Shown here in pieces: positions 19,251 through 60,073 of a stretch of DNA of 64,000 bases. The position numbers and the translations under genes were made by a program. Origin of the DNA: Candidatus Moraniibacteriota bacterium (GTDB lineage Bacteria > Patescibacteriota > Minisyncoccia > Moranbacterales > UBA1568); NCBI GenBank assembly GCA_052034975.1, contig JBPOIA010000021.1, positions 702-64,701 on the forward strand. The letters are read 5' to 3'. Numbering within the stretch: position 1 is the stretch's first letter; each line of letters begins with the position of its first letter. The notes beneath the pieces are model-generated. The model made no database searches and was not told the DNA's origin. It saw only the letters and a program-made list of their open reading frames with translations.

Positions 19251-19330
19251 ACGCTTTTGTGAATGCTTCGCTGATACGGCCATACAGGGTTGACGAAACT
19301 TCCGTGACAGGTATGATACAAGGGTGTCTC

Positions 19331-19403
19331 GGGCCATTAGCTCATCTGGTAGAGCGCATCCATGGCATGGATGAGGTGGCCGGTTCGAGTCCGGCATGGT
19401 CCA
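19331..19403 (+). tRNA. tRNA-Ala (anticodon GGC)
   Basis: Acceptor GGGCCAT with the G3:U70 Ala identity pair. Anticodon loop ATGGCAT. T-arm GCCGGTTCGAGTCCGGC. Confidence 0.85.
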
Positions 19404-19409
19404 CAAAAA

Positions 19410-39019: not shown

Positions 39020-39857
39020 AGAATTTTTCGTAGGCCCGGAATACGAAGGCGGCCTCTTTCCTTCCGAGAAGTCGGTCCATCCGGTTTTTTATCCTCCGTA
39101 TTGTACCATAGAGAGCTCCATACGGACGGATGAACCAGGGTGAGTGTTTTTCGAAGAATAAAAGTCCGGAATAAACGAGGTAGAAGGTCTTTTCGTTGCT
39201 TTTTCGGCTTTTTTCCTGATGATGCACGTGAGCACGCGGCACAACCAGGCAGCGAAATCCGGCTTTTCTCGCGCGCCAGCAAAAGTCAGCATCTTCGTAA
39301 TAAAGGAAGAATCGCTCATCGAGAAATCCTATCTTTTCGATCACCTCTCGCCTGATGAAGAGCGCGCAACCGGTCAAAAATCTACTTTCATACGCGTCTT
39401 GTCGCAAAAGTCTTTTTGGAGGGGTGGTGTGCTCGGTGCGCATCCGAAGAAAATCCACTCTTCCGGCGCCGAACCATATCTTTTCCGATCCGTCCTCAAA
39501 AATAAGCGGGCTGAACAGTCCGGCGTCGGGATACCGCTTCGCGGCAGCAACCAAAAAATCGAGCGTATCATTTTCGGAAGAGGCGTCGGAGTTGAACAGC
39601 CAGACGCTGTCGGCACCACGGGCAAACGCCTCACGCATCCCGATGTTCATTCCGCCGGCAAACCCCTTGTTTTCTCCGTTCGCGACGAAAACGAAAGACG
39701 GGAAACCCTTCTTGGCGACCAAGAACGAATCATCCGTCGATCCGTTATCCGCAACGATGATTTCCTTGTCTTCGTATCGGAGTTCCGAAAGGGAGCGTAG
39801 GCACTTCAAAAGACAGTCCGCGCCGTTGTAATTGAGAACAATGATGGCGACTTTCAT
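38973..39857 (-). CDS. Family-2 glycosyltransferase
   Basis: VAIIVLNYNGADCL...IIVADNGSTDDS, GFAGGMNIG and DxD give a GT-A fold. Confidence 0.8.
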   Translation of the reverse strand: MKVAIIVLNYNGADCLLKCLRSLSELRYEDKEIIVADNGSTDDSFLVAKKGFPSFVFVANGENKGFAGGMNIGMREAFARGADSVWLFNSDASSENDTLDFLVAAAKRYPDAGLFSPLIFEDGSEKIWFGAGRVDFLRMRTEHTTPPKRLLRQDAYESRFLTGCALFIRREVIEKIGFLDERFFLYYEDADFCWRARKAGFRCLVVPRAHVHHQEKSRKSNEKTFYLVYSGLLFFEKHSPWFIRPYGALYGTIRRIKNRMDRLLGRKEAAFVFRAYEKFYGRSSEHFSHLRQLS

Positions 39858-39888
39858 AACATAGCGATACTGACGCCCCGATCAAACG

Positions 39889-41355: not shown

Positions 41356-41377
41356 TGGATTTTTTGAATATCGTGCG

Positions 41378-41881
41378 CTAGATAGCCGGGGATTCATCGG
41401 CGACCGGCTTCGGACGCACCATTATCTTTCGTTCGGTTCCCTTGCCGACGCTTTCCGTAAATACACGGGTGTCCGTATGCAGATACGAATGGATGATCTT
41501 CCGCTCATAGGGAAGCATCGGGCGCAAGGCGACGGAAATATTGTTCAGCAAGACTTCATCAACCGCTTTCTTTGCCTCGCGTTCCAGCGTGGATTTCTTT
41601 TCCATAAAATAATCGTTCACGTCGATGATGACGTTTATGGATTCGCCGGTCTGCTTGCGAAACAATGATCGTACTAGATGCTGGACCGCTGCCAGATTCG
41701 CCCCGTACTGACCAATAAGAAAATGCTGATTCTCTTCTACCCGTACGGAGCACAGGAGCGTTTCTTGGGTTTCTTCAAGAGGGGAAATTTCGATATGGCG
41801 TATCTGAAAATCCATCTTCTCAAGAAGTTTCATCACGATGTCCTTCAGAATATCTGCGTTGGATGTTTCCATACGATTCAT
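41378..41881 (-). CDS. Jag/KhpB-like RNA-binding protein (KH + R3H)
   Basis: Conserved position downstream of yidC. R3H-like YERKIIHSYL. KH-like N-half. Confidence 0.65.
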   Translation of the reverse strand: MNRMETSNADILKDIVMKLLEKMDFQIRHIEISPLEETQETLLCSVRVEENQHFLIGQYGANLAAVQHLVRSLFRKQTGESINVIIDVNDYFMEKKSTLEREAKKAVDEVLLNNISVALRPMLPYERKIIHSYLHTDTRVFTESVGKGTERKIMVRPKPVADESPAI

Positions 41882-41882
41882 C

Positions 41883-42608
41883 TTACGCCTGTTTCGGCTT
41901 AAAAATATACATCTGCTGAAAAATCATAAACAGGGTCGAGAACAGCCAGTACAAGGACAGGGCGGCCGGAAACGTCGCGCCGATAAAGAGCGTCAACCCG
42001 GGACCAAGATAGAGCATCTGCTTATTCATTATAGCCGCAAAATCCGGCTCATCGGAAGCGGATGATGCCGATGAAGTAGCTTTTTGGCTCTGTAAAAGCA
42101 TTTTTGTCTGATAATACTGGGCGGCAGCCGAGAGAATTGCAAAAACGTAACTTGGCTTCGTAAGATCGACTATGTTCATAAAAAGATGCCCGATATTTCC
42201 AGGATTGGAGATAAAGGCGTACAAATCAGCCTGATTCACGACTAAACCGGCCTGGGAAATGTTCATAATCACCCGGTAAATAGCGATGAGGAAAACGAGC
42301 TGGATGATGAGCGGAAGGCAGCCGGAGAACGGGTTTACCTTGTTCTCCTTATAGAAATCCATTATGGCGCGCGTCTGTTTTTCCTTATCGTCCTTGTGTT
42401 TTTTCTGGATTTCCTTTATTTTCGGCTGAATTTCCTGCATTTTCTTCTGCGACTCTATCTGTTTTTTGGAAAGTGGGATGAATAATGTCTTGATGACGAG
42501 GGTCGTAAGAATGATAGCTATACCAAAATCCTGTCCGGGAACGGTATTATAGAAGAATATGAGGATATTATAGAGTGGCTGATAGATGAATATGTCGAAA
42601 AGGGCCAT
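41883..42608 (-). CDS. yidC: Membrane protein insertase YidC (short Oxa1-type)
   Basis: LYNILIFFYN, IIL[TL]TLVIKTLFIPLS and NPFSGCLPLIIQ are YidC core motifs. Confidence 0.85.
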   Translation of the reverse strand: MALFDIFIYQPLYNILIFFYNTVPGQDFGIAIILTTLVIKTLFIPLSKKQIESQKKMQEIQPKIKEIQKKHKDDKEKQTRAIMDFYKENKVNPFSGCLPLIIQLVFLIAIYRVIMNISQAGLVVNQADLYAFISNPGNIGHLFMNIVDLTKPSYVFAILSAAAQYYQTKMLLQSQKATSSASSASDEPDFAAIMNKQMLYLGPGLTLFIGATFPAALSLYWLFSTLFMIFQQMYIFKPKQA

Positions 42609-42619
42609 ATCTCTTTGTA

Positions 42620-42961
42620 TTAATTCGGATAAATTTGTCTTAAAAACCCATTAAAAACCTGTTGAATAGCCTCTTTTGTCCTATTTCTTGGCCTCTTCGT
42701 AAGAAAAAAAACAATATCTACTCCCTCAGAGGGACCTTTCTGAAAAAGTATCCTTAGCGTTTCTGAAAAAGTGCGCTTCAAACGATTCCTCTCGACAGCG
42801 GTCGGAACATACTTCTTACTCAAAGAAAACCCGACTTTTGGCTTATTTTCAGTATTTTTAACGTATCGGCAGCCTATTTCTTCAAAAAAAAGGGGTCTTC
42901 CGCTACGAAATACCCTATCGAAATCCTCCTTTTTTTTCAACCGGAATCCCTTTTTTAGCAT
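42620..42961 (-). CDS. rnpA: Ribonuclease P protein component
   Basis: LKKKEDFDRVF...VGFSLSKKYVPTAVERNRLKRTFSE matches the RnpA RNR motif region. Confidence 0.85.
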   Translation of the reverse strand: MLKKGFRLKKKEDFDRVFRSGRPLFFEEIGCRYVKNTENKPKVGFSLSKKYVPTAVERNRLKRTFSETLRILFQKGPSEGVDIVFFLTKRPRNRTKEAIQQVFNGFLRQIYPN

Positions 42962-42964
42962 ATT

Positions 42965-43105
42965 TTAAGCTACCGAAAGCTTTTTTCTTCCGGAAGCACG
43001 TCGACGGGCGATCACTTTTTTCCCGCCTTTCGTGCTCATTCGCTTCAAAAATCCATGGCGACGCGAGCGCTTACGGGTTTTCGGCTGATATGTTCTCTTT
43101 GGCAT
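42965..43105 (-). CDS. rpmH: 50S ribosomal protein L34
   Basis: Not in the ORF track. Reverse complement translates to [46 protein letters not shown]. Confidence 0.9.
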
Positions 43106-43290
43106 ATCATTTTGAAATAAATTGATTTAGCTCTGATAGTTTATGTAGTGTATCTAAAAAAGAGAGAAAAGTCAATTTATAAGGAAAAAGTGCACTTATT
43201 CACTTCTTATCCACTTTTTTAGCATCTTTTAGCTTCGCTACGAAGGTTTTTATCTGTTATAATGAGTTTTGCTGTTGATAATTTTCCTCT
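43106..43290. other. Putative oriC segment upstream of dnaA
   Basis: DnaA-box matches CTTATCCAC (~43208) and TGTTGATAA (~43275). Conserved rpmH|dnaA junction. Confidence 0.5.
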
Positions 43291-44709
43291 ATGACGAACG
43301 AGGAGCTTTGGAAAGCCGTTTTAGGACAAATTGAACTTTCCATATCGAAAGCGAATTTTATCACGTGGTTCAAGAATACCGCTATTTTAAATCGTCAAAA
43401 TGGGTTAGTGACCATTGGTGTTCCAAATGGATTTGCAAAGGAATGGCTCGAAAATAAGTATAATCACTACATCTTGAAAGCCTTAAAAAGCCTTGATTCT
43501 GATATAAATGAGATCCGTTGTATTCTTTCTATTGAAAAACCTCTCTCTCAAGGCATCGACTCTGTTAAAAATACCACTCCTTTAAAGTCGTCTGATGTTG
43601 CAACCGGCTTCGTAAGAAAAAAGCTCCTGGAAAAGCCTATTTTTACCGATCAACAACAAAGTACGCCGGCATTTCATGAAACAAACCTCAATACCCGGTA
43701 CACTTTTGAGAATTTTATTGTAGCTGAAAACAATGAGCTCGCTCGGGCAGCCTGCTACGCCGTTTCCCAAAATCTCGGTGCCGCCTATAACCCGCTTTTC
43801 ATCTACGGCGGTGTTGGTTTAGGAAAAACACACCTTCTCCAATCCATCGGGAATGAAGTTATCAAAAATCATCCAGAAAAACGCATTAAATATATCACTT
43901 CCGAGCGCTTTACCACGGAATTAGTGGATTCTATTAAAAATCAAAAAATCGACCGCTTTAAGGAATATTATCAACAGATGGATCTTTTAATTATTGATGA
44001 TGTACAATTCCTTTCTGGGAGAGAAAAGACTCAGAATGAGTTTTTCCATATCTTTAATTCCCTTTATCAGATCAATAAGCAGATTGTCATTTCAAGTGAC
44101 CGACCACCAAAATCCATCCCTACTCTTGAGGAGCGCCTCCGTTCCCGCTTTGAAGGCGGAATGATCACGGATATTAGCCGCCCGACCGTAGAGACAAGAA
44201 TTGCTATCTTAGAGGCAAAAATAGCCGAAAAGGGCTTTCTTCTCGATACCCCAGCTATCCGATTTATCGCGGAAAATATCACTCAAAACATTCGAGAACT
44301 TGAGGGGGCGTTAAACCGGGTGATGGCTTTTTGTGAATTTCATAAGATTCCACCCACTCTTGAAACAACCCAAAAAATCCTCCATCAGCTTATTCAAAAT
44401 AACAAGAAAACTCTTCAAATAGACGATGTTTTTTCTGTCATCACGGAATATTATACTCTCACTAAAGATGATCTCGTCCGGAAAGGAAGAAAAAAAGAAA
44501 TTTCCCATCCGCGACAAGTGATGATGTACATCTTACGAAAAGAACTTGAGATGCCTTTTTCCGCTATTGGGGAATATCTCGGGGGGCGCGATCATACAAC
44601 CGCACTCCATGCATTTGAAAAAATAGAGAAAGGAAAAGAAGAAAATTTACGATTAAAAGAAGAACTTTCTCTCCTTTATGAAAGATTATATTATTCTCAG
44701 AGTGGATAA
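43291..44709 (+). CDS. dnaA: Chromosomal replication initiator DnaA
   Basis: AAA+ Walker A GGVGLGKTHLL. Sensor motifs. C-terminal DnaA-box-binding HTH (...HTTALHAFEKIE...). Confidence 0.95.
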   Translation: MTNEELWKAVLGQIELSISKANFITWFKNTAILNRQNGLVTIGVPNGFAKEWLENKYNHYILKALKSLDSDINEIRCILSIEKPLSQGIDSVKNTTPLKSSDVATGFVRKKLLEKPIFTDQQQSTPAFHETNLNTRYTFENFIVAENNELARAACYAVSQNLGAAYNPLFIYGGVGLGKTHLLQSIGNEVIKNHPEKRIKYITSERFTTELVDSIKNQKIDRFKEYYQQMDLLIIDDVQFLSGREKTQNEFFHIFNSLYQINKQIVISSDRPPKSIPTLEERLRSRFEGGMITDISRPTVETRIAILEAKIAEKGFLLDTPAIRFIAENITQNIRELEGALNRVMAFCEFHKIPPTLETTQKILHQLIQNNKKTLQIDDVFSVITEYYTLTKDDLVRKGRKKEISHPRQVMMYILRKELEMPFSAIGEYLGGRDHTTALHAFEKIEKGKEENLRLKEELSLLYERLYYSQSG

Positions 44710-44949
44710 GGTTGTATAAATAAAAGAAAGAGGTGTATAAGAGTTTAATAAGAAAAAGAAAAAAGGGTATATTTTATTAAAAAAGAAAAATATTTCTTTT
44801 TATCCTTATAAAGTGTGGATTTTTATAAGAGATATCAAGGACTTCTTTTTATAAAAATCCTAAAAATAAAGCTTAAACTAACTTTATTCAGATATTCACC
44901 GAAGTAATGATAATAATAATTTCTTAATATATATACTCTATTATTTTTT
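44710..44949. other. AT-rich dnaA-dnaN intergenic region; probable DNA-unwinding element with DnaA-box variants
   Basis: Over 75% AT. Carries TTATCCTTAT and AAGTGTGGATTTTTA (ATCCACA core). Confidence 0.45.
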
Positions 44950-46098
44950 ATGAAACTTATCTGTACTCAAGAAAATCTTCAAAAAGCCCTTTCTTACCTA
45001 GAGCGTGTTGTTGGAAAACAAAGTACTCTTCCGATCCTGAGTAATTTTCTTTTAGAGACTGAAAATGGGAGATTAAAGATTTCTGCGACAAATCTTGAAA
45101 TTGGAGTGATTGTCTATATAGGGGCGAAAATAGAACAAGAAGGAAAAATAGCCATTCCAGCAAAATTATTAATGAATTTTATTTCTAATCTTCCTTATAG
45201 TGATGTTGTGGAGCTCTCTACGGAGAATTTTGTAATACATATAACCACCCCAACTCATCAAATGAAAATAAAAGGATTAAATGGGAAGGATTTTCCTATT
45301 ATTCCACAATATAAAAAGGAATATTTTTTCTCTTTTCCGGCACAAAAACTAAAAAATGCGCTTACAAGGGTACTTTTCTGTGCGAGTATAAATGAAGCTC
45401 GATTAGAACTTACGGGAGCACATATCTTCTTTTTTCAGGATTCTATCCATCTTGCAGCAACGGATAGTTTTCGGCTTGCGGAAGAAATTATCCCTTTTAC
45501 GGAATATGGTGAAGGATATCTTTCTTTCTTACAAAATACCCCATCACTCATACTCCCTCTTCATACACTTCAGGAAATTTCTAGAGTGATCACTCCTGAA
45601 AGTAATGAGGTAAAGATAGCACTTGAAGAAAATCAGATATTTTTCGAAGTCGATGGTGTACAAATCATCTCACGGATTATTAATGGAAAATATCCAGAAT
45701 ATAAACAAATTATCCCACAACAATTTACTCTCCAAATCATCTTTCAGAAAGAGATTTTTCAGCGCGCGATAAAGATAGCGAGTGCCCTCTCAATGTATAA
45801 CGAAAACGAGATAACCCTTTCTTTTGATCCGAGAAATTCACAATGTACAGTCACTTCGGTATCAAAAGAAGTCGGGGAAAATGTCACGACACTCCCAATA
45901 GAATTTTTTGAAGGAAAAACGCCGCTTACAATAACATTTAATCCACGATACGTGCTGGAAGGAATAAATGCTCTTGGAGGAGAAAAAATACTTTTTCTTG
46001 CGAATACAGAAGCAACCCCTGCGGGTATGCGAATGATGAAAGGGGAGCGCGAACCAGAACAGAATTATCTTTATATTCTGATGCCGATCAGGAAATAA
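44950..46098 (+). CDS. dnaN: DNA polymerase III beta sliding clamp
   Basis: MKLICTQENLQKALSYLERVV...LPILSNFLLE N-terminus. Three-domain length. Confidence 0.9.
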   Translation: MKLICTQENLQKALSYLERVVGKQSTLPILSNFLLETENGRLKISATNLEIGVIVYIGAKIEQEGKIAIPAKLLMNFISNLPYSDVVELSTENFVIHITTPTHQMKIKGLNGKDFPIIPQYKKEYFFSFPAQKLKNALTRVLFCASINEARLELTGAHIFFFQDSIHLAATDSFRLAEEIIPFTEYGEGYLSFLQNTPSLILPLHTLQEISRVITPESNEVKIALEENQIFFEVDGVQIISRIINGKYPEYKQIIPQQFTLQIIFQKEIFQRAIKIASALSMYNENEITLSFDPRNSQCTVTSVSKEVGENVTTLPIEFFEGKTPLTITFNPRYVLEGINALGGEKILFLANTEATPAGMRMMKGEREPEQNYLYILMPIRK

Positions 46099-49007: not shown

Positions 49008-50015
49008 CTAGAGACGTTTTCGCAGGTGAGGGAAGATTTTCTTGAGGATGAGATAAGAAACATCCGTTCCCTTGCCCTCCACGAGCGGCTTTTCGTTCAT
49101 ATTGTAGAACGGGTGCGGATTGATTTCGAGGATGACGTACGGGGCTTTTTCTGACGAGATGTCTTTTGAAAGAAGATCGAGGCCTCCATACGTGAGTCCT
49201 GCCGACTCGACCGCTTTAACGGCGATTTTTTTGAGTGCCGGATGCATCCGTTCGGTCATATCGATAGATCGCCCGCCATCCGACATATTGAGGTTGTTCC
49301 TGAATTTAAAGAAGCGACCTTTTTCCAGCACGGACGAAAGCGTCAAACCGGACTTTTTCAATGAGGTCTTGGCAACGGCATCGAGCCGTATCTCGAATCC
49401 TTTCATCCGGGTCTTATTGAAGGCAGTGATGAGGTTTCGTATGGAGGAGGAACCGTCGCCGGTGACGCCGGCGGGAATCTTCTGCACGCAAGAGATGACA
49501 CGACCATCAAGGACGAGTACGCGGTATTCGTTTCCGAGGAACATTTCTTCGACGAGAAACGAGATATTCTTTCTTTTTCCGTATGCGAGGAGAGCGTGCT
49601 GGGCCGCGGATCGAAGTTCTCGTTCGGATTCGATGCCCCAAGTCACACCTTTTCCGAGTGACCCATCGAGCGGTTTTGCGATGAGCGGATAGGAGAGCTT
49701 CGCTTCGCGGATTCTTCGTACAGCGTCAGCATATGATACCGCAGAGATACCGCGCGGTGTTCGGATACCGACGGTATCAAGCACGGCCTTCGTAAGGGTT
49801 TTTTGTTTTGTGAAGTTTCCCATATTGCGTTTTATAGGGAGGTTGCTCTTGTAACAAAACACCGTCTTTCCTTTGTGGAGGAGTTTGATGAAACGCACGT
49901 TGCCGTCAGAGAGAACAGTCGCTTCGACACCGAGTTCGAGAGCTCTCTTTATGAAGGAGCGGAACCCGCCGTGTTTCGTGTAGTGATTGACATCTTCCAT
50001 CTTCATTTTTTGCAT
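49008..50015 (-). CDS. RimK-like ATP-grasp ligase (alpha-L-glutamate ligase family)
   Basis: IAKPLDGSLGKGV, EYRVLVLDGRVIS and ILEINPHP are ATP-grasp core motifs. Confidence 0.7.
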   Translation of the reverse strand: MQKMKMEDVNHYTKHGGFRSFIKRALELGVEATVLSDGNVRFIKLLHKGKTVFCYKSNLPIKRNMGNFTKQKTLTKAVLDTVGIRTPRGISAVSYADAVRRIREAKLSYPLIAKPLDGSLGKGVTWGIESERELRSAAQHALLAYGKRKNISFLVEEMFLGNEYRVLVLDGRVISCVQKIPAGVTGDGSSSIRNLITAFNKTRMKGFEIRLDAVAKTSLKKSGLTLSSVLEKGRFFKFRNNLNMSDGGRSIDMTERMHPALKKIAVKAVESAGLTYGGLDLLSKDISSEKAPYVILEINPHPFYNMNEKPLVEGKGTDVSYLILKKIFPHLRKRL

Positions 50016-50024
50016 AGGAAAAAA

Positions 50025-51431
50025 TTATTTGCTTATATCGACGAGGAACCTACGGAGATGTTTCCGTCCGATGATGACCGGGTATTCAAGATGAGAGCGG
50101 TCGATAACCGATACCCGCGCCGGAATCTCAACGGTGTCCATAATGAAAGAGATCCGTATCTTCGGCCGCATCGAGAACCCATTCGATGAATAAACGAAAG
50201 AAACGCCGTCAAGGTCCGGATGTGCCCCCTTATACTGCACATCATAGCGGTCGGAGAGGGCGGTAAGATCGGCGCGTTCTCTCGCTTCTGGCTTCGGAAT
50301 CGTTTCAAAAAAATCAAGCACGTCGCTGAAGCCGAGTTCGCGGGCAAGTTCGGTGTCGATGGAGGTGGAGTCGGCGCCGGTGTCGATCTTGGCCTGTGTT
50401 TCGATTTCCTTGCCATCCTTGCCGATGAGCTTCACTTTTTCGACCGAACCGACGACGCGTTTGCCGGAAAGTTCCTCGATTTCCTCTTCGATCTCTCCGC
50501 CGAAGAGATTCTGTCCGACGCGCACGCCGCGCTCAGTGGTTTTGATGGAGAGTCCGGAGACGCGCTTCAACCGGTCGCGCAGACCGGAGAGGTTGGCGAG
50601 CTGGATGGAGAGTCCGGGACGTGCGTTTAATTCCAAAATAACCGGTCCTTGCTCACGATCGATCGAAATGTCCGCACCGAGAAACCCGAGTCCGGAAATC
50701 TCTTGGGCGCGCACCGACATTTGCAAAATATCTTTCCAATAAGGAATCTTGATACCCGAAAGGGCCAAGCGCGTGCCGGGCACGTACTCGATAACATGAC
50801 TTTTACCGAGGATGGCGCTTGTCGTCGTGCCGGTAGCCAGGTCGATGCCGACACCGATCGCTCCTTGCTGCAAGTTGGCCTTGCCGTCGGACTCTTTGGT
50901 CGGAAGGCGAAGCATCGCCATCACGGGGACGCGATTGAAGACGATGACACGGATGTCGGGGATGCCGCGATACGCGTAGGGCTTGAAAAGCTTGAGCAGT
51001 TTCAACCGTTCCTCAAAAAAAGCGGTATCGGGAATATTTGCGAGCGAGAATGATCCGTCGAGGATGTTCTGGATATGGATCTTGATATCCTCGATCGTCA
51101 CCATCGATCCGTCAGCTTTGACCCAGGCGTCATCGCGCCCCTTCTTGCGCGCGTAGACGACCAAGATGCCCTCGCCGCCAAATCCGCGGTTGGGTTTGAG
51201 CGCGAAGCTCGATGGCAGCGTCGACCAGTCGAATTCGTCAAGCTCGGTATGGTTTCTGATCTTCGCGACGAGACCCGGCGTAGCGAGGCCGTTTTTCTTG
51301 AGTGTGCGCTTCGAGAGCAGCTTGTCATCAGCAAGACGCTTCCCGCGCTCTCGGTTGTACGGGCGGGTATATTCTAGGTTGCGCGCGTTCATACCGAGTA
51401 GCCCGCGGCTTTTTTTGAGGAAGTCGAACAT
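50025..51431 (-). CDS. ATP-grasp ligase (sugar-transfer-associated type) fused to a C-terminal retropepsin-like (putative ATP-dependent zinc protease, DUF785-like) domain
   Basis: N-half ALKPNRGFGGEGILVV ... ILELNARPG. C-half AKIDTGADSTSID with an aspartyl-protease-like DTG. Confidence 0.65.
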   Translation of the reverse strand: MFDFLKKSRGLLGMNARNLEYTRPYNRERGKRLADDKLLSKRTLKKNGLATPGLVAKIRNHTELDEFDWSTLPSSFALKPNRGFGGEGILVVYARKKGRDDAWVKADGSMVTIEDIKIHIQNILDGSFSLANIPDTAFFEERLKLLKLFKPYAYRGIPDIRVIVFNRVPVMAMLRLPTKESDGKANLQQGAIGVGIDLATGTTTSAILGKSHVIEYVPGTRLALSGIKIPYWKDILQMSVRAQEISGLGFLGADISIDREQGPVILELNARPGLSIQLANLSGLRDRLKRVSGLSIKTTERGVRVGQNLFGGEIEEEIEELSGKRVVGSVEKVKLIGKDGKEIETQAKIDTGADSTSIDTELARELGFSDVLDFFETIPKPEARERADLTALSDRYDVQYKGAHPDLDGVSFVYSSNGFSMRPKIRISFIMDTVEIPARVSVIDRSHLEYPVIIGRKHLRRFLVDISK

Positions 51432-51473
51432 AGAAAGATGTCTGAGAGAACCGGAAAATGAAAGGCTCCGGAA

Positions 51474-52154
51474 TCACTTAATATACTGGAAGATCTTTCG
51501 GAAGCGGAGGTACTCCGAAATGCGAAGCCCCGTCCATTTTCCGAGGGAGAAATTGATGACAAACGTCAACAGGATGATCCACGGGTAGTCGAGGATAAGC
51601 GCGGTGAATGTGTCCCAGCTGATGAGGAAATATCCGGCGACGGAAATGATAAGCGTTTCGAGCGCGAGCAGGAATGCGACCTTATTGCCTTTCTCTATCT
51701 GAGTTGCGACGAATTTTTCCGCGAGCGTGATCATAATAAGGAGCGGGAAAATGGAAATGGATGCCAGCCCGGTGCGCTGGAACGATCCGCCGAAGATGAG
51801 GATACCGAGAATGGCGAACGACACGATAGAAAGAGTGAGAGCCACTCGCGGAAGATAAAGGAGACGAAAATAGCGCAGGATATAGCGCGATACCATTCCG
51901 ACCAGTATGACGGAAACGAAAATAGCGATGCCGTATTTGAGACCGTTCGGATCAAACGCGAGCAAAGCGAACGTAATGATGGACGGCGTATAGATGCCGA
52001 ACGCCTTGATGCCGATCACTTGGCGGAAGAAGGCGACGAGCGTCGCAACGACGGGAAGCATCAGAAGAAGCGTAATCGTCTGGAGTGGTACGCCGTGGAG
52101 GACGGCGAAGGTGATGAAGGGATGGTATTGCATAAAAATAAATCCAAAATTCAA
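51474..52154 (-). CDS. Seven-transmembrane protein of the ATP-grasp/7TM module
   Basis: 226 aa. Seven predicted helices. No soluble domain. Confidence 0.6.
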   Translation of the reverse strand: MNFGFIFMQYHPFITFAVLHGVPLQTITLLLMLPVVATLVAFFRQVIGIKAFGIYTPSIITFALLAFDPNGLKYGIAIFVSVILVGMVSRYILRYFRLLYLPRVALTLSIVSFAILGILIFGGSFQRTGLASISIFPLLIMITLAEKFVATQIEKGNKVAFLLALETLIISVAGYFLISWDTFTALILDYPWIILLTFVINFSLGKWTGLRISEYLRFRKIFQYIK

Positions 52155-54359: not shown

Positions 54360-55370
54360 CTACAACAATTTGTCCTGATGGTCTTCCGGGACGTCGAGTC
54401 CCAAGTGTTTGTAGGCGGCGGGAGTGACAATACGACCGCGTGGTGTGCGGGCAAGAAAACCGAGTTGAATAAGATAAGGCTCGTAGACATCCTCGATGGT
54501 TTGGATCTCTTCGCCGGTGACGGCGGCAAGGGACTGGACGCCTGCTGGTCCGCCTTTGAATGTGCCAATGAGGGCGTTTAAAATGTGCCGATCAGTCGGT
54601 TCGAGGCCAAGCGTGTCGATTTCATAGAGATCGAGGGCCTTTCGGGCGATTTCCCCGGTGATGGTGTCGATATCCTGTATCTGGGCGTAATCACGGACGC
54701 GTTTCAAGATGCGGTTGGCGACACGGGGCGTCTGGCGGCTTGAGCGGGCGATCTCCGCTGCGCCATCGGTATCGATGCCGATATTGAGGATGTGCGAGGA
54801 ACGGGAGACAATCCGCTCGATTTCTTCCGGTGTGTAGAACTCGAGGCGGTGTGTTGAGCCGAAGCGATTGCGGAGCGGGTTGGAGAGCGAACCGAGACGG
54901 GTGGTGGCACCGATCAGTGTGAAATGAGGCAGATCAAGCTGGATGGTGCGCGCGGCGGGACCTTTGCCGATGATGATGTCGAGCTTGTAATCTTCCATCG
55001 CTGGATAGAGGACTTCCTCAATCGTTTTATTCAGCCGGTGGATTTCGTCGATAAAGAGCACATCGCCGTTTTCGAGGTTCGTGAGAATGGATCCGAGATC
55101 CCCGACGCGCTCGATGGCCGGTCCGGAGGTTATCTTGATGTGTACGCCCATCTCTTTGGCAATAATGTGGGCAAGTGTTGTTTTTCCGAGACCCGCCGGA
55201 CCATAAAGGAGAACGTGGTCGATAGTCTCACCACGCTTCTTGGCGGCTTGGATGAAAATGCCGAGATTACGCTTTATTTTTTCTTGCCCGACGTATTCGG
55301 AAAACGCCTGCGGACGCAGGGTATTATCGAGATTTTGTTCATCGAGCGGTTGCGGATCGGTACTGATCAT
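54360..55370 (-). CDS. ruvB: Holliday junction branch-migration helicase RuvB
   Basis: Walker [17 protein letters not shown]. Walker [10 protein letters not shown]. Sensor motifs. The track ORF extends to 55418. Confidence 0.9.
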
Positions 55371-55522
55371 AAGAGACAAAAAGCGAGAATCTTTAATAAT
55401 TGTACCATCCATCCGCACCAGCTACAAACCAAAAAACGTGAAAGAAGAGCCTTTTCTTGAAGCTGAGAAAAAGCGATTCGAGCGGCGGTCTTGTGGAGCG
55501 AAACAACGTACGAAACGCCGTC

Positions 55523-55552
55523 TTGACAAAAAAATCAAGCTATGCTACTATC
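55523..55552 (+). promoter_or_regulatory. Orphan sigma70-like promoter
   Basis: TTGACA - 17 nt - TACTAT. No plus-strand CDS downstream for 4.6 kb. Confidence 0.45.
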
Positions 55553-55557
55553 AAAAG

Positions 55558-55772
55558 TCGCTTCATTGAAAAAAGCTCCCCGGGGCTGTTTCACCTGTAG
55601 ACAATTGGGGATTTCTATCTTTTGTCCTCAATCCGGGAATAATGGTCAAGATCGGGTAGGGTGGTTTCGGCTGCGCTATACCTCGACCGTATTCCTTTTC
55701 CCGTGCTCCTATGTATGGGTTTTGTCTACAGATGAAACGATCCCAAAAAAAGACCCTCGGAGGGTCTTTTTT
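55558..55772 (+). ncRNA. Candidate small structured RNA (6S-like?) between the promoter and an intrinsic terminator
   Basis: 10-bp long-range pairing CTGTAGACAA...TTGTCTACAG closes a ~140-nt domain. Ends at GACCCTCGGAGGGTC followed by TTTTTT. No ORF. Confidence 0.3.
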
Positions 55773-55778
55773 CTTTGT
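55744..55778. terminator. Bidirectional intrinsic terminator (A-run, hairpin, T-run)
   Basis: AAAAAAA GACCCTC gga GGGTC TTTTTT. Serves the candidate sRNA on the plus strand and the PilB-like gene on the minus strand. Confidence 0.7.
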
Positions 55779-55795
55779 TTCTCAAAGAGGCTACT

Positions 55796-58700
55796 TTATA
55801 GGTCGGTGACGCGACGGACTTCTTCGAGTGTCGTTTTGCCTTCAAGGACGGAAAGGATACCGTCCTGTGCGATTGTGATCATCCCGCCTTTAATCGCTTG
55901 TTCTTCTATCTCGTGAGTCAGGGCATTCCTCGCGATCAAGTCCTTCATCACATTATCGACGAGGAGCGCTTCGGAAAGCATCACTTGCCCTTTGTATCCG
56001 GTGCCATTGCAAGCGGCACAGCCGGACCCCTTTGAAAGAGCGCGTTGTTTCGGGAGGGTGATACCGGACGTTTCCGGAAGCGAAGCGAGAACACGTTCGA
56101 TGACGGAGGATTCTTCCGTGGATGGCTCGGCCGGTTTTTTACAGTGTTCGCAGACGCGGCGCACGAGACGTTGTGCCAGGAAAAGATCGCCCGCATTCGC
56201 GAGATCATCTCCGGATACGCCCATTTTGAGGAGTCGCGTTACGGTGCCGGCGGCGGAGTTGGCATGGAGGGTTGAGAGTACCAGGTGTCCGGTGCTCGCG
56301 GCTTGGACGGCGATTTGGGCGGTTTCATCATCGCGAATTTCGCCGATCATCAGGATGTCCGGATTTTGACGAAGGAGTGAGCGGAGCGCGGTCACGAACG
56401 TATAACCCTCAGCATCATTCACTTGTGTTTGGAGCAACCCTTTCATCTGGTATTCGATCGGATCCTCGACAGTGATGATCTTGATTTCCGGTCGGTTGAG
56501 CCGTGCGAGGATGCTATAGAGTGTTGTTGTCTTGCCGGAACCGGTCGGTCCGGTATTCAGTATCACGCCGTTCGGTTTTTTGATTGCCGTGAGAATTCTT
56601 TCTAAGTTCTGCTTGCGGATGCCGAGGGTTTCGAGATCGAGCTTCGAGACGGATTGGTTCAAGAGCCGCATCACAACCGTCTCACCGAAACCGCCGGAGA
56701 TGAGCGAAAGACGGACATCGACGGTGCCGCTCGCTGCCTGCTCGATTGGTTCCTCGAGCGTGATAGAGAAGCGATTGTCGGTGATACCGGCGCGCTCGCT
56801 CGTTTTGAGTCCGACGAGCGCCTTGATTTCACCGACAAAACTCGGATATTCGTTGAGAGGGAAACTCGCCACGGTCTGCAGGATGCCGTCGATGCGGAAA
56901 CGCGCCTCGAATGTTTCTGCCGCCGGTTCGATATGGATATCTCCCGCCTGGAGCGCGAGTGCGGCGGCGAAGATTGTTTGGAGACGCAGCTTGGAATCGA
57001 CGCTTGCGGCATAAGCGGCGAAATCCGGAAGGGAAGCGATATGTTTCACGGTCTCATCCATACAGGTCTTCGGAACATAGGAAGCGCGCGAAAGATCGCT
57101 CAGCATAATGTCGAGATAGATATTCTTCAGAATTTCGACCTGGTCGGTGACGCGCCAAACCTCCTCAAGTGTCGTGATACCGGCAAGGGTTTTCAGGATG
57201 CCGTCCTGGGTCATCGTGACCATCCCGTTTTCGAGCGCCGCCTTGAAGATCTCCTGTTCTGTACCACGTTCGTTGATGATTTCGATGATGTCCGGTGTCA
57301 TCGCGAATACTTCGAAAATCCCGACCCGTCCGCGGTAGCCGGTAAAATGACATTCCGAACACCCCACGGCTTTCCAAAGGGCATCGACGTTCTTTGGGAG
57401 AGGAATTTTTGCTTTGGGCGAAATGACGGTAACGAGTCGCATAATGGAATCGAGCGTCTCTTTGGTTGGTTGGTAGGAGACGCGGCATTTCGGACAGAGT
57501 CGGCGCACGAGGCGCTGAGCGATAACGATATTGAGGGACGACGATATGAGCGACGGTTTCACACCGAGCTCGATAAGTCGTGGAATAGCTGCCGGTGCGT
57601 TGTTGGCATGGAGAGTCGAAAGGACGAGGTGGCCGGTGAGCGCCGCATTGACGGCGATATCCGCCGTTTCGTCGTCGCGGATTTCTCCGACCAAGATGAC
57701 GTCCGGATCCTGCCGGACAATGGCCCGGAGCGCGGTCGCGAACGTATAGGACTTGTCTTTGGAGACTTCGGTCTGGACGATGCCGGAGAGTGAATATTCG
57801 ATCGGGTCCTCGACGGTGATGATCTTTGTCCCCGGTTGGTTGATGCGGGAAAGGAGGGTATAGAGCGTCGTCGTTTTTCCGGAACCGGTTGGTCCGGTAT
57901 TCAGGATCATCCCATGAGGCTTTTCGGTCTGACCGATGACCTCTTCTCGGGTCAGTCCGGTGAGACCGAGGTCGTTGATGTCTACAACGATGTCTTCTCC
58001 CGAGAGAAGACGCATATTGATGCTTTCGCCGTGTTTGCCGGGAATGCTGTTGACACGCACGTCAACGCGTTTGTTTTCGAGTTCGATGAAGAAGTGTCCG
58101 TCTTGGGCCTTGTCGCGGATATTGAGGCGCATCTTACCGATCATTTTGATGCGGGAGAGAAGGAGCCGATAGACTTCGACAGGAAGCGTGCCAATGTCTT
58201 GGAGTACGCCGTCGATGCGATAGCGCAGGCGAGTATGCTCTTCTTCCGGTTCGATGTGAATATCGCTTGCGTCGAGTTTCCGTGCGCCGGCAAGGATGAT
58301 CTCCATCGCGCGAGAAGTCGTGACCGGATGACTTTCTTTCAGGTGCATCAGTTCGCCGAATTCGGCTTCGAAGCGTTCCAGGTCCTGTCCGCCCAAAGAG
58401 ACGCGCACAAGATCGAGATTGTCGATGAATGTCCGCTTGGAGTAATTTTTCCATGCGTGTTCGATGGCCGGACGCGAGACGACATAGAGCTCTTTTTCCC
58501 AGCCTTTTTCGCGGCAGATATTTTCGATGAAAGAAAGCGTTTCCTGATTCGTAGGATCAGTGAGGGCGAAGAAAACTTGCGCGGATTTTTTTTGAAACAG
58601 GATGAGTCCAAACTTCCGAGCATCATTTTCCGGCACCAAAAGCACATCCTCGACCTCCAAAGGAAAAAGAGAGAGGTCGATGTAGGGAAGCCCGTGTTTT

Positions 58701-58819
58701 TGAGCCAGACGAGCAGCCTCTTCTTCGATCGAGACCTGTCGCATTTTTTGCAGGACGTCCTCGGTTTTTTGGCTTTTCTCGTCCGGGAGAGGGGCGCCTT
58801 GAGGAGAAACCTTTACCAT
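55796..58819 (-). CDS. Tandem-fused double PilB/GspE-type secretion ATPase (two complete N-domain + ATPase + Cys4 units in one polypeptide)
   Basis: Walker A twice (LNTGPTGSGKTTTLYTLLSR and LNTGPTGSGKTTTLYSILAR). Motif VEDPIEY twice. Two tetra-Cys motifs (CPKC...CSEC and CEHC...CAAC). Two GspE_N-like regions. Confidence 0.8.
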   Translation of the reverse strand: MVKVSPQGAPLPDEKSQKTEDVLQKMRQVSIEEEAARLAQKHGLPYIDLSLFPLEVEDVLLVPENDARKFGLILFQKKSAQVFFALTDPTNQETLSFIENICREKGWEKELYVVSRPAIEHAWKNYSKRTFIDNLDLVRVSLGGQDLERFEAEFGELMHLKESHPVTTSRAMEIILAGARKLDASDIHIEPEEEHTRLRYRIDGVLQDIGTLPVEVYRLLLSRIKMIGKMRLNIRDKAQDGHFFIELENKRVDVRVNSIPGKHGESINMRLLSGEDIVVDINDLGLTGLTREEVIGQTEKPHGMILNTGPTGSGKTTTLYTLLSRINQPGTKIITVEDPIEYSLSGIVQTEVSKDKSYTFATALRAIVRQDPDVILVGEIRDDETADIAVNAALTGHLVLSTLHANNAPAAIPRLIELGVKPSLISSSLNIVIAQRLVRRLCPKCRVSYQPTKETLDSIMRLVTVISPKAKIPLPKNVDALWKAVGCSECHFTGYRGRVGIFEVFAMTPDIIEIINERGTEQEIFKAALENGMVTMTQDGILKTLAGITTLEEVWRVTDQVEILKNIYLDIMLSDLSRASYVPKTCMDETVKHIASLPDFAAYAASVDSKLRLQTIFAAALALQAGDIHIEPAAETFEARFRIDGILQTVASFPLNEYPSFVGEIKALVGLKTSERAGITDNRFSITLEEPIEQAASGTVDVRLSLISGGFGETVVMRLLNQSVSKLDLETLGIRKQNLERILTAIKKPNGVILNTGPTGSGKTTTLYSILARLNRPEIKIITVEDPIEYQMKGLLQTQVNDAEGYTFVTALRSLLRQNPDILMIGEIRDDETAQIAVQAASTGHLVLSTLHANSAAGTVTRLLKMGVSGDDLANAGDLFLAQRLVRRVCEHCKKPAEPSTEESSVIERVLASLPETSGITLPKQRALSKGSGCAACNGTGYKGQVMLSEALLVDNVMKDLIARNALTHEIEEQAIKGGMITIAQDGILSVLEGKTTLEEVRRVTDL

Positions 58820-58939
58820 ATTCGTTTTCGTGTCGGTTTTCCATCATTGTACCGTAAGATACGGGAGTGAGCAAAGAAAAAGCCACCCGAGAAACGAGTG
58901 GCGAAAGGGTTCCTTGTATCGGTCGGCATTCGCGAGAGA

Positions 58940-60073
58940 TCATTTTTCCGCAAGTGTTCCGATGACGATATGCTCCGCCTCGTCGAGGCTGTTGGCGTCG
59001 AGAGTGAAACGGAAGACGTCGTTTTCCAGGTGGCCGTTCGGAAAACGTTTGGCAAATGCAGCAAGGGCCTCTGGCGAAATGGCGCGTGCGATGCCGAGGA
59101 TACGAGCATTCGTCTCGGGCGAGAGAATAAGGAAGAGGCTGGCGGCGGAATAATTACCTCGGATTTTCTCGAGCACGAGCGGCAGGTCTTCGGCACGAGC
59201 GCGCGACTGCACCAAATCTTCGATAGAGACTTGTGCCCAAATGAGTTTCAGGTCATCGTTCCATTTAAGCTGCGACATCACCCGCCCCCAGAGTTTGAGA
59301 AGATGGAGCGGTTGAGTTTTATACAGTGAGCGGACGATTTTTTGCTGGTCGGCGCCCTGGTCCATCAAACGCGAAGCGGTATGGAGAGCCCGAGGAGTCG
59401 TGTTTTTTTTCTGAAAACTCTCTGTCGCTGAAATGATTCCGGTAAGCAGACACTCATACACTCGGCTGTCCAAGAGGGCCGGATCGGCCTTCTCGAGTAT
59501 TTCCGCGAGTATTTCCGAGACGGACGAAGCGGTGATATCCATCAGGTTTACCTGGCCGAACAGCTCGTTGTCCGGATGATTGTCGAGATTCACGACCGGC
59601 ACCTCATAGAAGATATCCGGATTGTTTTCGTAGATTTGCCCGAGCCGCTCTTTGTCGGGCGACCCAATGACGATCACGAGATCGAATTTGAATTGTGCCG
59701 GAACGAAGGAAAAGTCCCGTGGATCGATGGCACCGTGATCCGGTGTGAGATAGATGCGGAGCTCGTGACCAGCTTCTTCCGTGCGAACGTTCGAGATGCG
59801 GTTGCGCTCCGTGTTGAACGAGAGGATGAAATCCCGTGCACCGGAAAGCGATGAGAGAAGACTTTTCGGTTCGGTGAGAAAGGCGAGTGACTCCTTGTCT
59901 TTGAGGATATTCTCTCCGGCGACAGAAACCTCTCTTCCGGAATTTTCAAGGAAAAGCGCGAGCGCGAACGCGGTTGAAAGCGCGTCTCGGCTCGGGTAGC
60001 TGGGCAAGAGGATGAGCGGGGAAGCCGTCTTTTTCAGGAGTTCTCGGAATTGTTGGGCTGGCGAGAGCGACAT
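58940..60073 (-). CDS. DHH-family (NrnA-like) paralogue with degenerate catalytic motifs
   Basis: DLVIVIGSPD and LLTGIISATESFQ resemble NrnA motifs II/IV. The DHH position reads NHP (LDNHPDN) and GGGH reads NGH. Confidence 0.45.
   Translation of the reverse strand: MSLSPAQQFRELLKKTASPLILLPSYPSRDALSTAFALALFLENSGREVSVAGENILKDKESLAFLTEPKSLLSSLSGARDFILSFNTERNRISNVRTEEAGHELRIYLTPDHGAIDPRDFSFVPAQFKFDLVIVIGSPDKERLGQIYENNPDIFYEVPVVNLDNHPDNELFGQVNLMDITASSVSEILAEILEKADPALLDSRVYECLLTGIISATESFQKKNTTPRALHTASRLMDQGADQQKIVRSLYKTQPLHLLKLWGRVMSQLKWNDDLKLIWAQVSIEDLVQSRARAEDLPLVLEKIRGNYSAASLFLILSPETNARILGIARAISPEALAAFAKRFPNGHLENDVFRFTLDANSLDEAEHIVIGTLAEK

Follow-up and report, generated by a model that had tools for sequence, protein, structure and literature searches.

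The minus-strand gene described here, a tandem PilB/GspE-type ATPase gene, lies between a gene for a degenerate DHH protein of the NrnA family and ruvB in the 64-kb window, that is, the whole stretch of DNA analysed (Table 1). The original prediction presented it as a single continuous 1007-aa reading frame with two ATPase units, and translation gives exactly such a frame at 55796-58819, with 0 N bases, 0 internal stops and a single terminal stop.

Table 1. Coordinates of the tandem ATPase gene, its domains and its neighbours in the window
Feature	Position	Strand	Basis or remark
Degenerate NrnA-family DHH protein, 377 aa, conserved upstream partner gene	58940..60073	-	
Terminator-like hairpin upstream of the tandem pilB start, after the DHH-like gene	58882..58902	-	consensus match only
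Tandem PilB/GspE-type ATPase gene	55796..58819	-	1007 aa + stop
N1 domain (MshEN/GspE_N), aa 42-127	58439..58696	-	PF05157, E = 3.1e-9, single stretch
Unit 1 N2 domain, aa 172-283, including Arg fingers R255, R270	57971..58306	-	self-alignment, AF2 secondary structure
Unit 1 catalytic domain, aa 284-559	57143..57970	-	motifs invariant in 71 family members; PilB/PilF core fold
Unit 1 motifs			Walker A 309-316, Asp box 337-341, E379, His box 395-404, Cys442/445/487/490
Inter-unit linker, aa 560-612	56984..57142	-	family consensus, AF2 pLDDT
Unit 2 N2 domain, aa 613-731, Arg fingers R703, R718	56627..56983	-	six-residue insertion relative to unit 1
Unit 2 catalytic domain, aa 732-1007	55799..56626	-	motifs conserved in family
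Unit 2 motifs			Walker A 757-764, Asp box 785-789, E827, His box 843-852, Cys890/893/934/937
Palindromic hairpin AAAAAAGACCCTC-CGA-GAGGGTCTTTTTT	55746..55772	.	A-run/T-run flanks, consensus match only
ruvB, conserved downstream neighbour	54360..55418	-	translation; RuvB Pfam domains in syntenic loci

Both flanks correspond to what had been predicted for them. The supposed bidirectional terminator is a palindromic hairpin located 24 nt after the tandem pilB stop codon and terminator-like on both strands, while Rfam and tRNA scans of the 377-nt gap before ruvB found nothing. The upstream 377-aa protein, described earlier as a degenerate DHH paralogue, scores below threshold in Pfam DHH (18.6 bits) and matches NrnA-type proteins in the PDB profile search with E = 1e-30; it possesses a conserved insertion and has lost the catalytic motifs, and because of this loss a nuclease role is unlikely. 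In 65 of the 73 species with enough flanking sequence the DHH-like gene immediately precedes the tandem gene on its strand; it also lies upstream of single-unit PilBs, and ruvB follows the tandem gene on the same strand at a distance of no more than 2.1 kb in 56 of 66 species. The conserved order is DHH-like gene, tandem pilB and ruvB, with ruvC, yebC, polA, fpg and holA nearby.

The absence of pilC, pilM and pilin genes from the window, also noted in the original prediction, was reproduced by tblastn, by a prepilin-motif scan and by Pfam scans of ORFs of at least 180 aa, which detected none of pilC, pilM, pilN, pilO, pilT, pilD and pilin genes in the 64 kb. In five related loci with Pfam annotation, the genes called up to about 10 kb away include no pilus genes, and no second T2SSE gene occurs in the window or within 10 kb of the tandem gene in 80 genomes. 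Since neither the window nor the annotated loci contain pilus genes, the connection of the tandem ATPase with pili is based on homology and on the neighbour of one relative (see below). Across CPR bacteria, genes for type IV pili are widely distributed (PMC6744442).

Pfam search of the whole protein resulted in two separate T2SSE (PF00437) stretches with E = 2e-223 and a score of 741 bits against the curated cut-off of 24.9, and self-alignment of the two halves (aa 172-559 and aa 613-1006) gave 45% identity with E = 3e-117. Both units possess the Walker A motif GPTGSGKT, the Asp box VEDPIEY, the Walker B/catalytic Glu motif GEIRD, the His box TGHLVLSTLH and two CxxC pairs, in agreement with the Walker A, VEDPIEY/His-box and tetra-cysteine motifs named in the original prediction. 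The claim of two full units, each with a GspE_N-like region, holds for the ATPase units themselves but not for the N-terminal region: the N1 domain (GspE_N/MshEN) was found by Pfam in the whole 1007-aa protein only at aa 42-127, and unit 2, which is preceded by a linker of about 52 aa, differs in this respect from GspE/PilB-type ATPases, where N1 belongs to the ATPase unit. The layout is N1-N2-CTD-linker-N2-CTD, and because unit 2 consists of the N2 and catalytic domains with no N1, the tandem protein is equal to 1.8 PilBs and not to two full-length PilBs.

The inter-unit linker contains a motif conserved in the tandem family consensus (Q..L..IY.eLMpS.LSR) and a short disordered stretch (about aa 568-577, AF2 pLDDT below 50), and then enters the unit 2 N2 domain through a strand and two helices (aa 579-612, pLDDT about 86). 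A profile alignment pairs it with the unit 1 linker between N1 and N2, but confidence is low upstream of N2, and the homology of these two linkers is only suggestive. An internal start at Met572, which would yield a separate unit 2, was considered and set aside, as this residue is not conserved in the wider tandem family.

In comparison with family models unit 1 alone scored 474.5 with PilB, 467 with GspE and 195 with the PilT family model, and unit 2 alone scored 392, 413 and 166, respectively. Since both units fit the PilB and GspE models far better than the PilT family model, the protein is assigned by its sequence to the extension type (PilB/GspE) and not to the retraction type. The whole protein reached 858 against the cut-off of 675.65 for PilB (TIGR02538) and 870 against 630.25 for GspE (TIGR02533); these NCBIfam equivalog cut-offs are passed only as the sum of two units, neither of which reaches the PilB or GspE cut-off alone. 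In the Foldseek search against PDB each unit was 41-42% identical to solved PilB/PilF cores with TM-scores up to 0.93 (normalised to target), and only single-unit PilB, PilF and GspE were retrieved. The 12 closest solved relatives are all single-unit chains.

The tandem architecture is widely distributed. More than 120 protein clusters of 1004-1009 aa from NCBI, JGI, ENA and Logan assemblies align with the protein at 54-71% identity and 100% coverage, and about 13 representative clusters at 50% identity share the same architecture down to 40% identity. The carriers of the approximately 1007-aa form are mostly Candidatus Moranbacteria, together with other Patescibacteria; the Patescibacteria with the tandem gene are ultra-small bacteria. 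A genome scan with the junction alignment of 6 close tandem sequences as a query returned 300 genome hits, and the best 80 species-level genomes all span the junction of units 1 and 2: in about 70 of these species a single frame of 1006 codons or more is free of stops, the remaining ones show contig-end cuts or frameshifts elsewhere and never at the junction, and a gene split at the unit junction was seen in 0 of the 80. Over 5626 bp that include the tandem gene, Logan SRR34217541, a second assembly, matches at 100% identity. The possibility that two ordinary adjacent pilB genes lost the stop codon between them in sequencing or assembly, which came from the caveat of the original prediction itself and gained no supporting point, is practically negligible in view of the in-frame junction and conserved linker motif in these clusters from four data sources, the junction in the 80 species genomes, the identical second assembly, and a unit 2 that has neither an N1 domain nor a start codon conserved across the wider family. 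Sequencing error at the junction is ruled out by this comparative evidence, and the tandem ATPase gene is genuine and vertically conserved in Candidatus Moranbacteria and related Patescibacteria.

Residue conservation was followed in 71 members of the tandem family at twelve residues mapped from Geobacter PilB (PilB_Gm), where the roles of residues and the motif definitions, as well as the correspondence of R255/R270 to R271/R286, were taken from PMC5424180. The equivalents of R271, R286, E357, E395, D398, T411, H413, H420 and R455 are present in 71/71 members in both units, while T327 is kept in 71/71 in unit 1 and 68/71 in unit 2, and E400 in 70/71 and 62/71, respectively. The position of R257 is occupied by His (His242) in unit 1 in 68/71 members and by Arg683 in unit 2, and this replacement may alter inter-unit communication of unit 1. 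The four Cys are invariant in each unit (C442/C445/C487/C490 and C890/C893/C934/C937) and form the tetracysteine zinc-binding motif, and both units show the Walker A, Asp box, atypical Walker B with catalytic Glu and His box that characterize PilT/VirB11-like ATPases. Pore-loop acids are kept in both units, in unit 2 as D830 and E832.

The conservation of Walker B and Arg fingers in each half, which the original prediction proposed to check, is seen in these family members: both units have the Walker A Lys, the Asp-box Glu, the catalytic Glu, the two His of the His box and the two Arg fingers in 71/71. Because each unit keeps the residues needed to bind and hydrolyse ATP, both are predicted to be active. 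F1/V1 ATPases contain non-catalytic subunits, and by this parallel one unit might be a catalytically dead scaffold or regulatory module left by a degenerate duplication; the mean pairwise catalytic-domain identity in the family is slightly lower for unit 2 than for unit 1 (62% and 68%), His replaces the R257-equivalent Arg in unit 1, and in the unrelated tandem protein P0137 the Walker A Lys of the first unit is changed to Thr. Against this stands the invariance of the key catalytic residues and Arg fingers in both units, so that a dead half, the second route by which the original prediction might have failed, appears very improbable and was rejected on motif conservation. Unit 1 and unit 2 are 38% identical in their N2 domains and 50% in catalytic domains, and together with the N1 domain missing from unit 2 and the His242/Arg683 difference this N2 divergence provides modest evidence for specialisation of the units.

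The tandem gene would have originated by internal duplication of the N2-CTD module in an ordinary single-unit PilB, whose gene would already have been positioned behind the degenerate DHH (NrnA-like) gene. The single-unit relatives P0147 and P0156 share this DHH-like gene as their upstream neighbour, and an N_methyl pilin gene follows P0156; on the basis of these neighbours the descent of the tandem gene in situ from a single PilB linked to pili is proposed. Among other tandem proteins, the units of P0126 are 74% identical to each other and those of P0125 57%, P0137 represents a further case, and P0002 is a diverged triple with three units in 1460 aa, known as a single sequence from one contig. 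The tree of units was constructed by a fast distance method, and from its topology together with the pairwise identities the tandem fusion is judged to have arisen several times independently.

The explanation that accounts best for the observations as a whole, and which is held with somewhat better than even confidence, is a conserved tandem PilB that originated by N2-CTD duplication and works as a three-chain, six-unit ring on the PilC trimer. Three chains would close into a single ring, (u1-u2)x3, in which the two kinds of unit alternate over six positions; this ring would correspond to the ordinary PilB hexamer and carry only three N1 anchoring domains. According to a published model, the PulF/PilC trimer presents six alternating Cyto1/Cyto2 domains, and every one of them contacts a single N2D in the ATPase hexamer (PMC10790770). 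Such a ring would dock onto the PilC trimer with the two cytoplasmic domains of a PilC protomer each facing one N2, and tandem ATPase and PilC chains would then pair one to one. Pilin polymerisation would be driven by ATP turnover around this ring, as in other type IV pili, and the resulting pili would serve host attachment and/or DNA uptake. The trimer of covalent dimers as a pseudo-hexamer with asymmetric specialisation, the preferred model, is plausible, and the unit copy numbers of 2 in the tandems and 3 in the triple are both divisors of six. AlphaFold2 predictions of single chains, aimed at an intramolecular N2D:CTD "packing unit" in the full-length protein (pTM 0.49) and in a CTD1-linker-N2D2 construct (pTM 0.63), provided confident domains and no confident inter-unit geometry.

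These predictions, which give no confident in-ring packing, also agree with another arrangement, where six chains form a stacked double ring, with unit-1 modules in one ring and unit-2 modules in a second ring beneath it, so that only the N1-bearing unit-1 ring touches the membrane platform and the second ring regulates it or adds power. This arrangement resembles the tandem ATPases KaiC, p97/NSF and ClpB and is consistent with two complete ATPase modules in one chain and with the N1 anchoring domain on unit 1 only, and the disordered linker stretch of roughly 10-20 residues could allow either geometry. However, to our knowledge no stacked ring exists for any PilT/VirB11-like ATPase, and the closest solved relatives listed above offer no precedent. 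In published models the N2 domain and pore-loop acids face PilC, while in a buried second ring there would be no obvious need for the unit 2 N2, D830 and E832, which are kept under selection. Furthermore, the triple would imply three stacked rings, while six units in one ring result from 2 x 3 as well as from 3 x 2. According to these considerations the stacked arrangement is regarded as rather improbable.

The conserved gene order, with recombination genes near the tandem pilB, raises the question of a different job, in which the tandem ATPase with its DHH-like partner and recombination neighbours would power a competence-type DNA-uptake filament instead of an adhesive or twitching pilus, or would serve another export task. 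The ComGA model matches each unit below its cut-off, CPR bacteria are thought to use pili and competence proteins for DNA uptake (PMC6744442), and in Saccharibacteria TM7x one pilus locus includes the recAX operon (PMC12206443). On the other hand, gene order in related small genomes can persist with no functional link, terminator-like hairpins separate pilB from ruvB and the DHH-like gene from pilB, the DHH-like protein without its catalytic motifs is unlikely to be a nuclease, and no comEC or comEA was seen in the 64-kb window. This different job is doubtful, although it deserves some weight.

In the literature no description was found of tandem, fused or duplicated PilB or GspE, of Moranbacteria PilB, or of DHH with PilB, in a search that covered a minority of subscription journals, and databases annotate the tandem family only as "GspE/PulE family protein"; the tandem PilB fusion of Patescibacteria is apparently undescribed. 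In Patescibacteria a central part in attaching to hosts and acquiring DNA is ascribed to type IV pili. In PilB-family motors the C2, C3 or sequential mode of ATP use and the coupling of six ATPase subunits to PilC are open questions, and in other ring ATPases such questions were approached by engineering covalently linked subunits in which individual sites can be mutated. Covalent dimers, and one covalent trimer, occur naturally in this lineage and lend themselves to structural and mutational study of PilB motors; both units of the dimers look active and have already begun to diverge. The finding also points to an unstudied conserved partner gene, that of the degenerate NrnA-like protein.

A broader proposal, which is tentative and estimated at clearly less than even, states that covalently linked PilB motors arose repeatedly, as doubles and at least one triple, that each forms a single six-unit ring whose units divide labour, and that the dead NrnA-like protein is a PilB cofactor. 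If this is true, the double would be a three-fold ring matched one-to-one to trimeric PilC, and the triple would have two-fold symmetry in keeping with the C2 catalytic cycle; the units would have begun to divide labour, with the membrane anchor on one only and a differing R257-equivalent sensor; and PilB in Patescibacteria would have a hitherto unrecognised cofactor in the conserved NrnA-like protein, which is catalytically dead. These proteins would then be natural asymmetric motors in which to test the number and spatial pattern of active sites that drive pilus extension.

Among known systems, GspE (Vibrio EpsE/GspE, PDB 1P9R, 4KSR, 4PHT) has in common with the tandem protein N1, N2, the catalytic domain and the four-Cys zinc motif, and the GspE HMM score is comparable to that of PilB; the tandem architecture sets the protein apart. 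Because Patescibacteria are reported to have no outer-membrane secretin, with PilQ not found (PMC6744442), a classical type II secretion system is unlikely. Within the same machine, a precedent for change in the number of repeats per chain is given by PilC/GspF versus TadB+TadC, the same component existing as a two-repeat chain or as separate chains, where the PilC/GspF platform is a ring of six domains built from three two-domain units (PMC10790770; PMC6668835). It concerns the membrane platform and not the ATPase, and a fused ATPase is not mentioned in either of these papers (PMC10790770; PMC6668835).

PilB itself (G. metallireducens, PDB 5TSG/5TSH/6OLJ; Thermus PilF core 5IT5) shares with each unit the N2 and catalytic fold, the catalytic and inter-unit sensing residues (with His at the R257 equivalent in unit 1) and the tetracysteine motif, and shares with unit 1 the MshEN/GspE_N domain. 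It is a single-unit chain, while the tandem proteins contain two, rarely three, units per chain, and the tandem gene differs further by the missing N1 of unit 2, by per-unit scores below the PilB equivalog cut-off and by the absence of a pil operon. In the PilB-type ATPase PilF of Thermus thermophilus (PDB 6F8L, 913 aa), the great length likewise stems from multiplication of domains within the chain; in the search against solved structures PilF matches as one stretch. PilF multiplies only its N-terminal GSPII/MshEN-like domains and has one ATPase unit, while here the ATPase unit is doubled and N1 remains single. Two ATPase modules per chain are also present in the tandem ring ATPases KaiC, p97/NSF and ClpB and in engineered covalently linked ClpX; all of these belong to ATPase families distinct from PilB, and in the natural examples the modules form stacked rings and do not alternate within one ring. 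Covalent linkage in such ATPases allows unequal subunits.

In the 1007-aa protein the T2SSE domain (PF00437) is found by Pfam in two separate stretches (whole-protein E = 2e-223), and alignment of the two halves to each other (unit 1, aa 172-559; unit 2, aa 613-1006), a check proposed earlier, gave 45% identity over 395 columns (E = 3e-117). Both halves share the GPTGSGKT (Walker A), VEDPIEY (Asp box) and TGHLVLSTLH (His box) motifs, and each contains GEIRD (the atypical Walker B end with the catalytic Glu) and two CxxC pairs; the Walker A, VEDPIEY, His-box and cysteine motifs claimed for each unit in the original prediction were thus all recovered. The prediction of two ATPase units in one ORF also holds, but not that of a GspE_N region in each, as the GspE_N/MshEN domain (N1) occurs in a single copy at aa 42-127 (Pfam). 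Unit 2 has just an N2 domain and a catalytic domain (CTD), and a linker of about 52 residues (aa 560-612) leads into it, which gives the layout N1-N2-CTD-linker-N2-CTD. The observation is genuine except for the absent second N1 domain.

Features of the tandem pilB locus and of the surrounding window
Feature	Position	Strand	Details
Tandem PilB/GspE-type ATPase gene	55796-58819	-	1007 codons, single terminal stop, zero ambiguous bases
DHH-like gene	58940-60073	-	377 aa; also at loci L002, L004-L007, L009, L091
Palindromic hairpin	55746-55772		A and T runs on either side
Non-coding gap, pilB to ruvB	55419-55795		377 nt
Promoter-like site in the gap	55523-55551	opposite	
Canonical DHH/DHHA1 (NrnA-like) gene	20083-21042	+	DHH and GGGH intact
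T4SS_pilin (PF18895) ORF	33660-34523	+	287 aa; E = 2.7e-6
Replication-origin neighbourhood	41883-46098		
yidC	41883-42608	-	
dnaA	43291-44709	+	
dnaN	44950-46098	+	
Wzy_C and glycosyltransferase genes	17247-19406; 35665-41397	-	
ATP-grasp and 7TM_transglut genes	49008-52154	-	

When 5.8 billion proteins were searched, more than 120 clusters matched over about 100% of their length (1004-1009 aa) at 54-71% identity, derived from NCBI, JGI, ENA and Logan assemblies; members with a name fall within Candidatus Moranbacteria/Moraniibacteriota, Patescibacteria or Minisyncoccota, and their annotation goes no further than "GspE/PulE family protein" or "PilB". About 13 representatives (978-1018 aa) in a library clustered at 50% identity have the same architecture down to 40% identity, and next in the ranking below them are ordinary PilBs, about 550 aa long. 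One genome per species was then scanned with a query spanning the junction, which gave 300 confirmed hits. Among the best 80 of these the junction was covered in all and split in none, and about 70 carried both units in one frame that runs for at least 1006 codons with no stop; the others were cut by contig ends or frameshifted elsewhere in the gene. A second assembly (Logan, SRR34217541) is identical across 5626 bp. The suggestion that a lost stop had joined two adjacent pilB genes is refuted by these clusters, genomes and second assembly, and in the assemblies compared neither a stop nor a frameshift falls at the junction. A motif is also conserved within the linker, reading Q..L..IY.eLMpS.LSR among close family members and GD..YIE.LY among distant ones, which argues for selection on the fused state.

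In the complete Moraniibacteriota genome CP064994.1 (locus L052, 8493-11512) a frame change interrupts the tandem gene within unit 1, not at the junction, and reflects either a pseudogene or an error of assembly. The DHH/tandem-pilB/ruvB locus of Moranbacteria type is also present in many ENA third-party MAGs titled "uncultured Bdellovibrionales" (L014, L015, L020, L022 and about 25 other loci), these titles probably being taxonomic mislabels.

The residues whose roles McCallum et al. (PMC5424180) describe in Geobacter PilB (PilB_Gm) were mapped by motif spacing, with M. xanthus PilB aligned as a check on the unit 2 mapping, and conservation was counted in a 71-sequence family alignment.

Functional residues of PilB_Gm and their equivalents in the two units
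PilB_Gm	Role	Unit 1	Unit 2
R271, R286	Phosphate sensors ("Arg fingers")	R255, R270	R703, R718
T327	Walker A region	T311	T759
E357	Asp box, Mg coordination	E341	E789
E395	Catalytic Glu	E379	E827
D398, E400	Pore loop	D382, E384	D830, E832
T411, H413, H420	His box	T395, H397, H404	T843, H845, H852
R455	Inter-unit contact	R439	R887

All tabulated residues are kept in 71/71 sequences save T759 (68/71), E384 (70/71) and E832 (62/71); the Walker B/catalytic Glu and Arg fingers, singled out for inspection in each half, are thus invariant (E379/E827, R255/R270, R703/R718, all 71/71). Both units look catalytically competent by this comparison, and the reading of one half as a pseudogene or degenerate copy is refuted by the retention of catalytic residues in both units across the 71 sequences. 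The sole systematic difference between the units at functionally described positions concerns Geobacter PilB R257, which in the open ATP-analogue interface is salt-bridged to the Asp-box Glu (PMC5424180); at the equivalent position unit 1 carries His242 (68/71) and unit 2 carries Arg683 (71/71). The catalytic domain is somewhat better kept in unit 1 (mean pairwise identity 68% versus 62%), and between units the N2 domains are more diverged (38% identity) than the catalytic domains (50%). Each unit has 41-42% identity to solved PilB/PilF cores with TM-score up to 0.93, two units per chain being absent from the solved structures matched. By HMM scores both units group with extension ATPases (PilB/GspE), far from PilT; the PilB and GspE "equivalog" cut-offs are passed by the whole protein only as a two-unit sum, each unit alone falling below them.

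The tandem gene lies outside any pilus operon, in the strongly conserved order tsaE (divergent), DHH-like gene, tandem pilB, ruvB, small gene, bPH_2-domain gene, yebC and ruvC, with polA, fpg and holA near this block. Of 73 species having enough flank, 65 have the DHH-like gene directly upstream of tandem pilB on its strand, and ruvB follows within 2.1 kb downstream in 56/66 species. Both predicted flanks, a terminator-like hairpin and a degenerate DHH gene, are in place; the gap before ruvB contains several hairpins and a promoter-like site, with no Rfam or tRNA match. The predicted lack of pilC, pilM and pilin genes in the window agrees with tblastn with an ATPase unit and a prepilin-motif scan, which found no further pilus gene, and with Pfam, by which the larger ORFs are housekeeping genes only. 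The T4SS_pilin match, barely above the cut-off, is to type IV secretion, not the type IV pilus.

Elsewhere in the window, G+C falls to 35-40% in the origin neighbourhood and the GC-skew sign flips near 46-48 kb, dnaA lying about 11 kb from tandem pilB. Three Wzy_C (O-antigen-ligase-like) membrane proteins, two family-2 glycosyltransferases and one polysaccharide flippase are encoded in two regions, and G+C is low (about 40%) at 16-20 kb. Two ATP-grasp (RimK/ATPgrasp_ST) genes and a 7TM_transglut membrane protein gene share synteny with relatives at the ruvC end of the conserved block.

By profile match to PDB 4LS9 (E = 1e-30) the DHH-like protein is a member of the NrnA family, with most catalytic motifs gone: DxD retains one Asp, motif II has Gly in place of Asp, DHH mostly reads D-N-H, and motif IV Asp and GGGH are lost, while an insertion of about 50 residues (TPE.G.IDPRDFSF.PA) is well conserved. 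Since the window also encodes an intact DHH/DHHA1 protein, the pilB-adjacent gene is a diverged paralogue and not the sole DHH enzyme of the cell. It may be an unrecognised PilB partner. The same DHH-like gene precedes single-unit PilBs in related lineages (P0147, P0156), and also the triple-unit P0002 (L007); in P0156 the gene after pilB carries an N_methyl prepilin signal. Therefore, the tandem gene descended in situ from an ordinary PilB that this protein already accompanied and that, in one lineage at least, was linked to a pilin.

In a neighbour-joining (distance) tree of single units, which has no usable support values, unit-2 modules of the main family cluster together, unit-1 modules fall among ordinary single-unit PilBs of related bacteria, and the two units of P0126 and of P0125 are mutually closest (74% and 57% identity, respectively; 40-52% in the main family). 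These patterns indicate tandem fusion at least three times among these PilBs, P0126 and P0125 (L008) being independent, more recent duplications; P0125 adjoins ruvB and has no DHH-like gene upstream. P0137 (L010:10001-13144) is a further independent tandem and unrelated fusion, where PilC-like T2SSF repeats are joined to two T2SSE units, the first with Walker A GSGTT (Lys to Thr), in a Planctomycetota-like context (sulfatases, ECF sigma factor, BatA/MoxR). P0002 (L007:10001-14383; 1460 aa) comprises N1 and three N2-CTD units, the middle one resembling unit 3 in its linker and N2 (72% identity) and unit 1 in its catalytic domain (64%), a chimera as would be expected from unequal crossing-over between units; its copies have diverged to 68% DNA identity and hence are not an assembly artefact.

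These data establish, at the sequence level, a conserved covalent tandem of two PilB-type units with intact catalytic machinery in both. As a reasonable but unproven model we infer that three chains would form one six-unit ring with alternating units 1 and 2, a pseudo-hexamer equivalent to that of PilB but having three N1 domains. A stacked double ring of tandem chains would be the chief structural alternative. For PilT-like ATPases the single six-unit ring is the only known form, joined by "packing units" of an N2 domain and the neighbouring CTD (PMC5424180), and both units retain N2 and the pore-loop acids, which indirectly supports the six-unit ring, as do the copy numbers seen, two and three, both divisors of six. 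Indirect support also comes from an experimental and modelling study in which the GspF/PilC platform is proposed as a trimer whose six alternating Cyto1/Cyto2 domains each bind one N2 domain of the ATPase hexamer in 6:3 stoichiometry (PMC10790770), so that a tandem chain would pair 1:1 with a PilC chain; speculatively, the greater N2 divergence would be expected if each N2 adapts to a different Cyto domain. AlphaFold runs on the full chain (pTM 0.49) and on a construct from the unit 1 CTD to the unit 2 N2 domain (pTM 0.63) yielded confident domains with no confident placement of the units, and weigh neither for nor against this idea. The output is presumably type IV pilin polymerisation, pilus genes being widespread and enriched in CPR bacteria (PMC6744442). 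The recombination/repair neighbourhood is compatible with a role in DNA uptake, and, as a parallel case, recAX lies within one pilus locus in Saccharibacteria (PMC12206443).

Fused ATPases are not mentioned in a recent review of PilB and its cofactors (PMC11656802), a broad type IV filament survey (PMC6668835) or a recent Patescibacteria pilus study (PMC12206443), and targeted full-text searches, incomplete in coverage, returned no description of such fusion. The sequences are already public and the ATPase fold and chemistry are ordinary; the unexpected part is the recurrent natural covalent linkage of PilB, including a triple, and the conserved degenerate NrnA-like partner. The units belong to the GspE/PilB-type subgroup of the PilT/VirB11-like ATPase superfamily, and, in contrast to every characterised member, the tandem protein has two ATPase units per chain; such natural tandems and the triple would make motor symmetry and motor-platform coupling directly testable.
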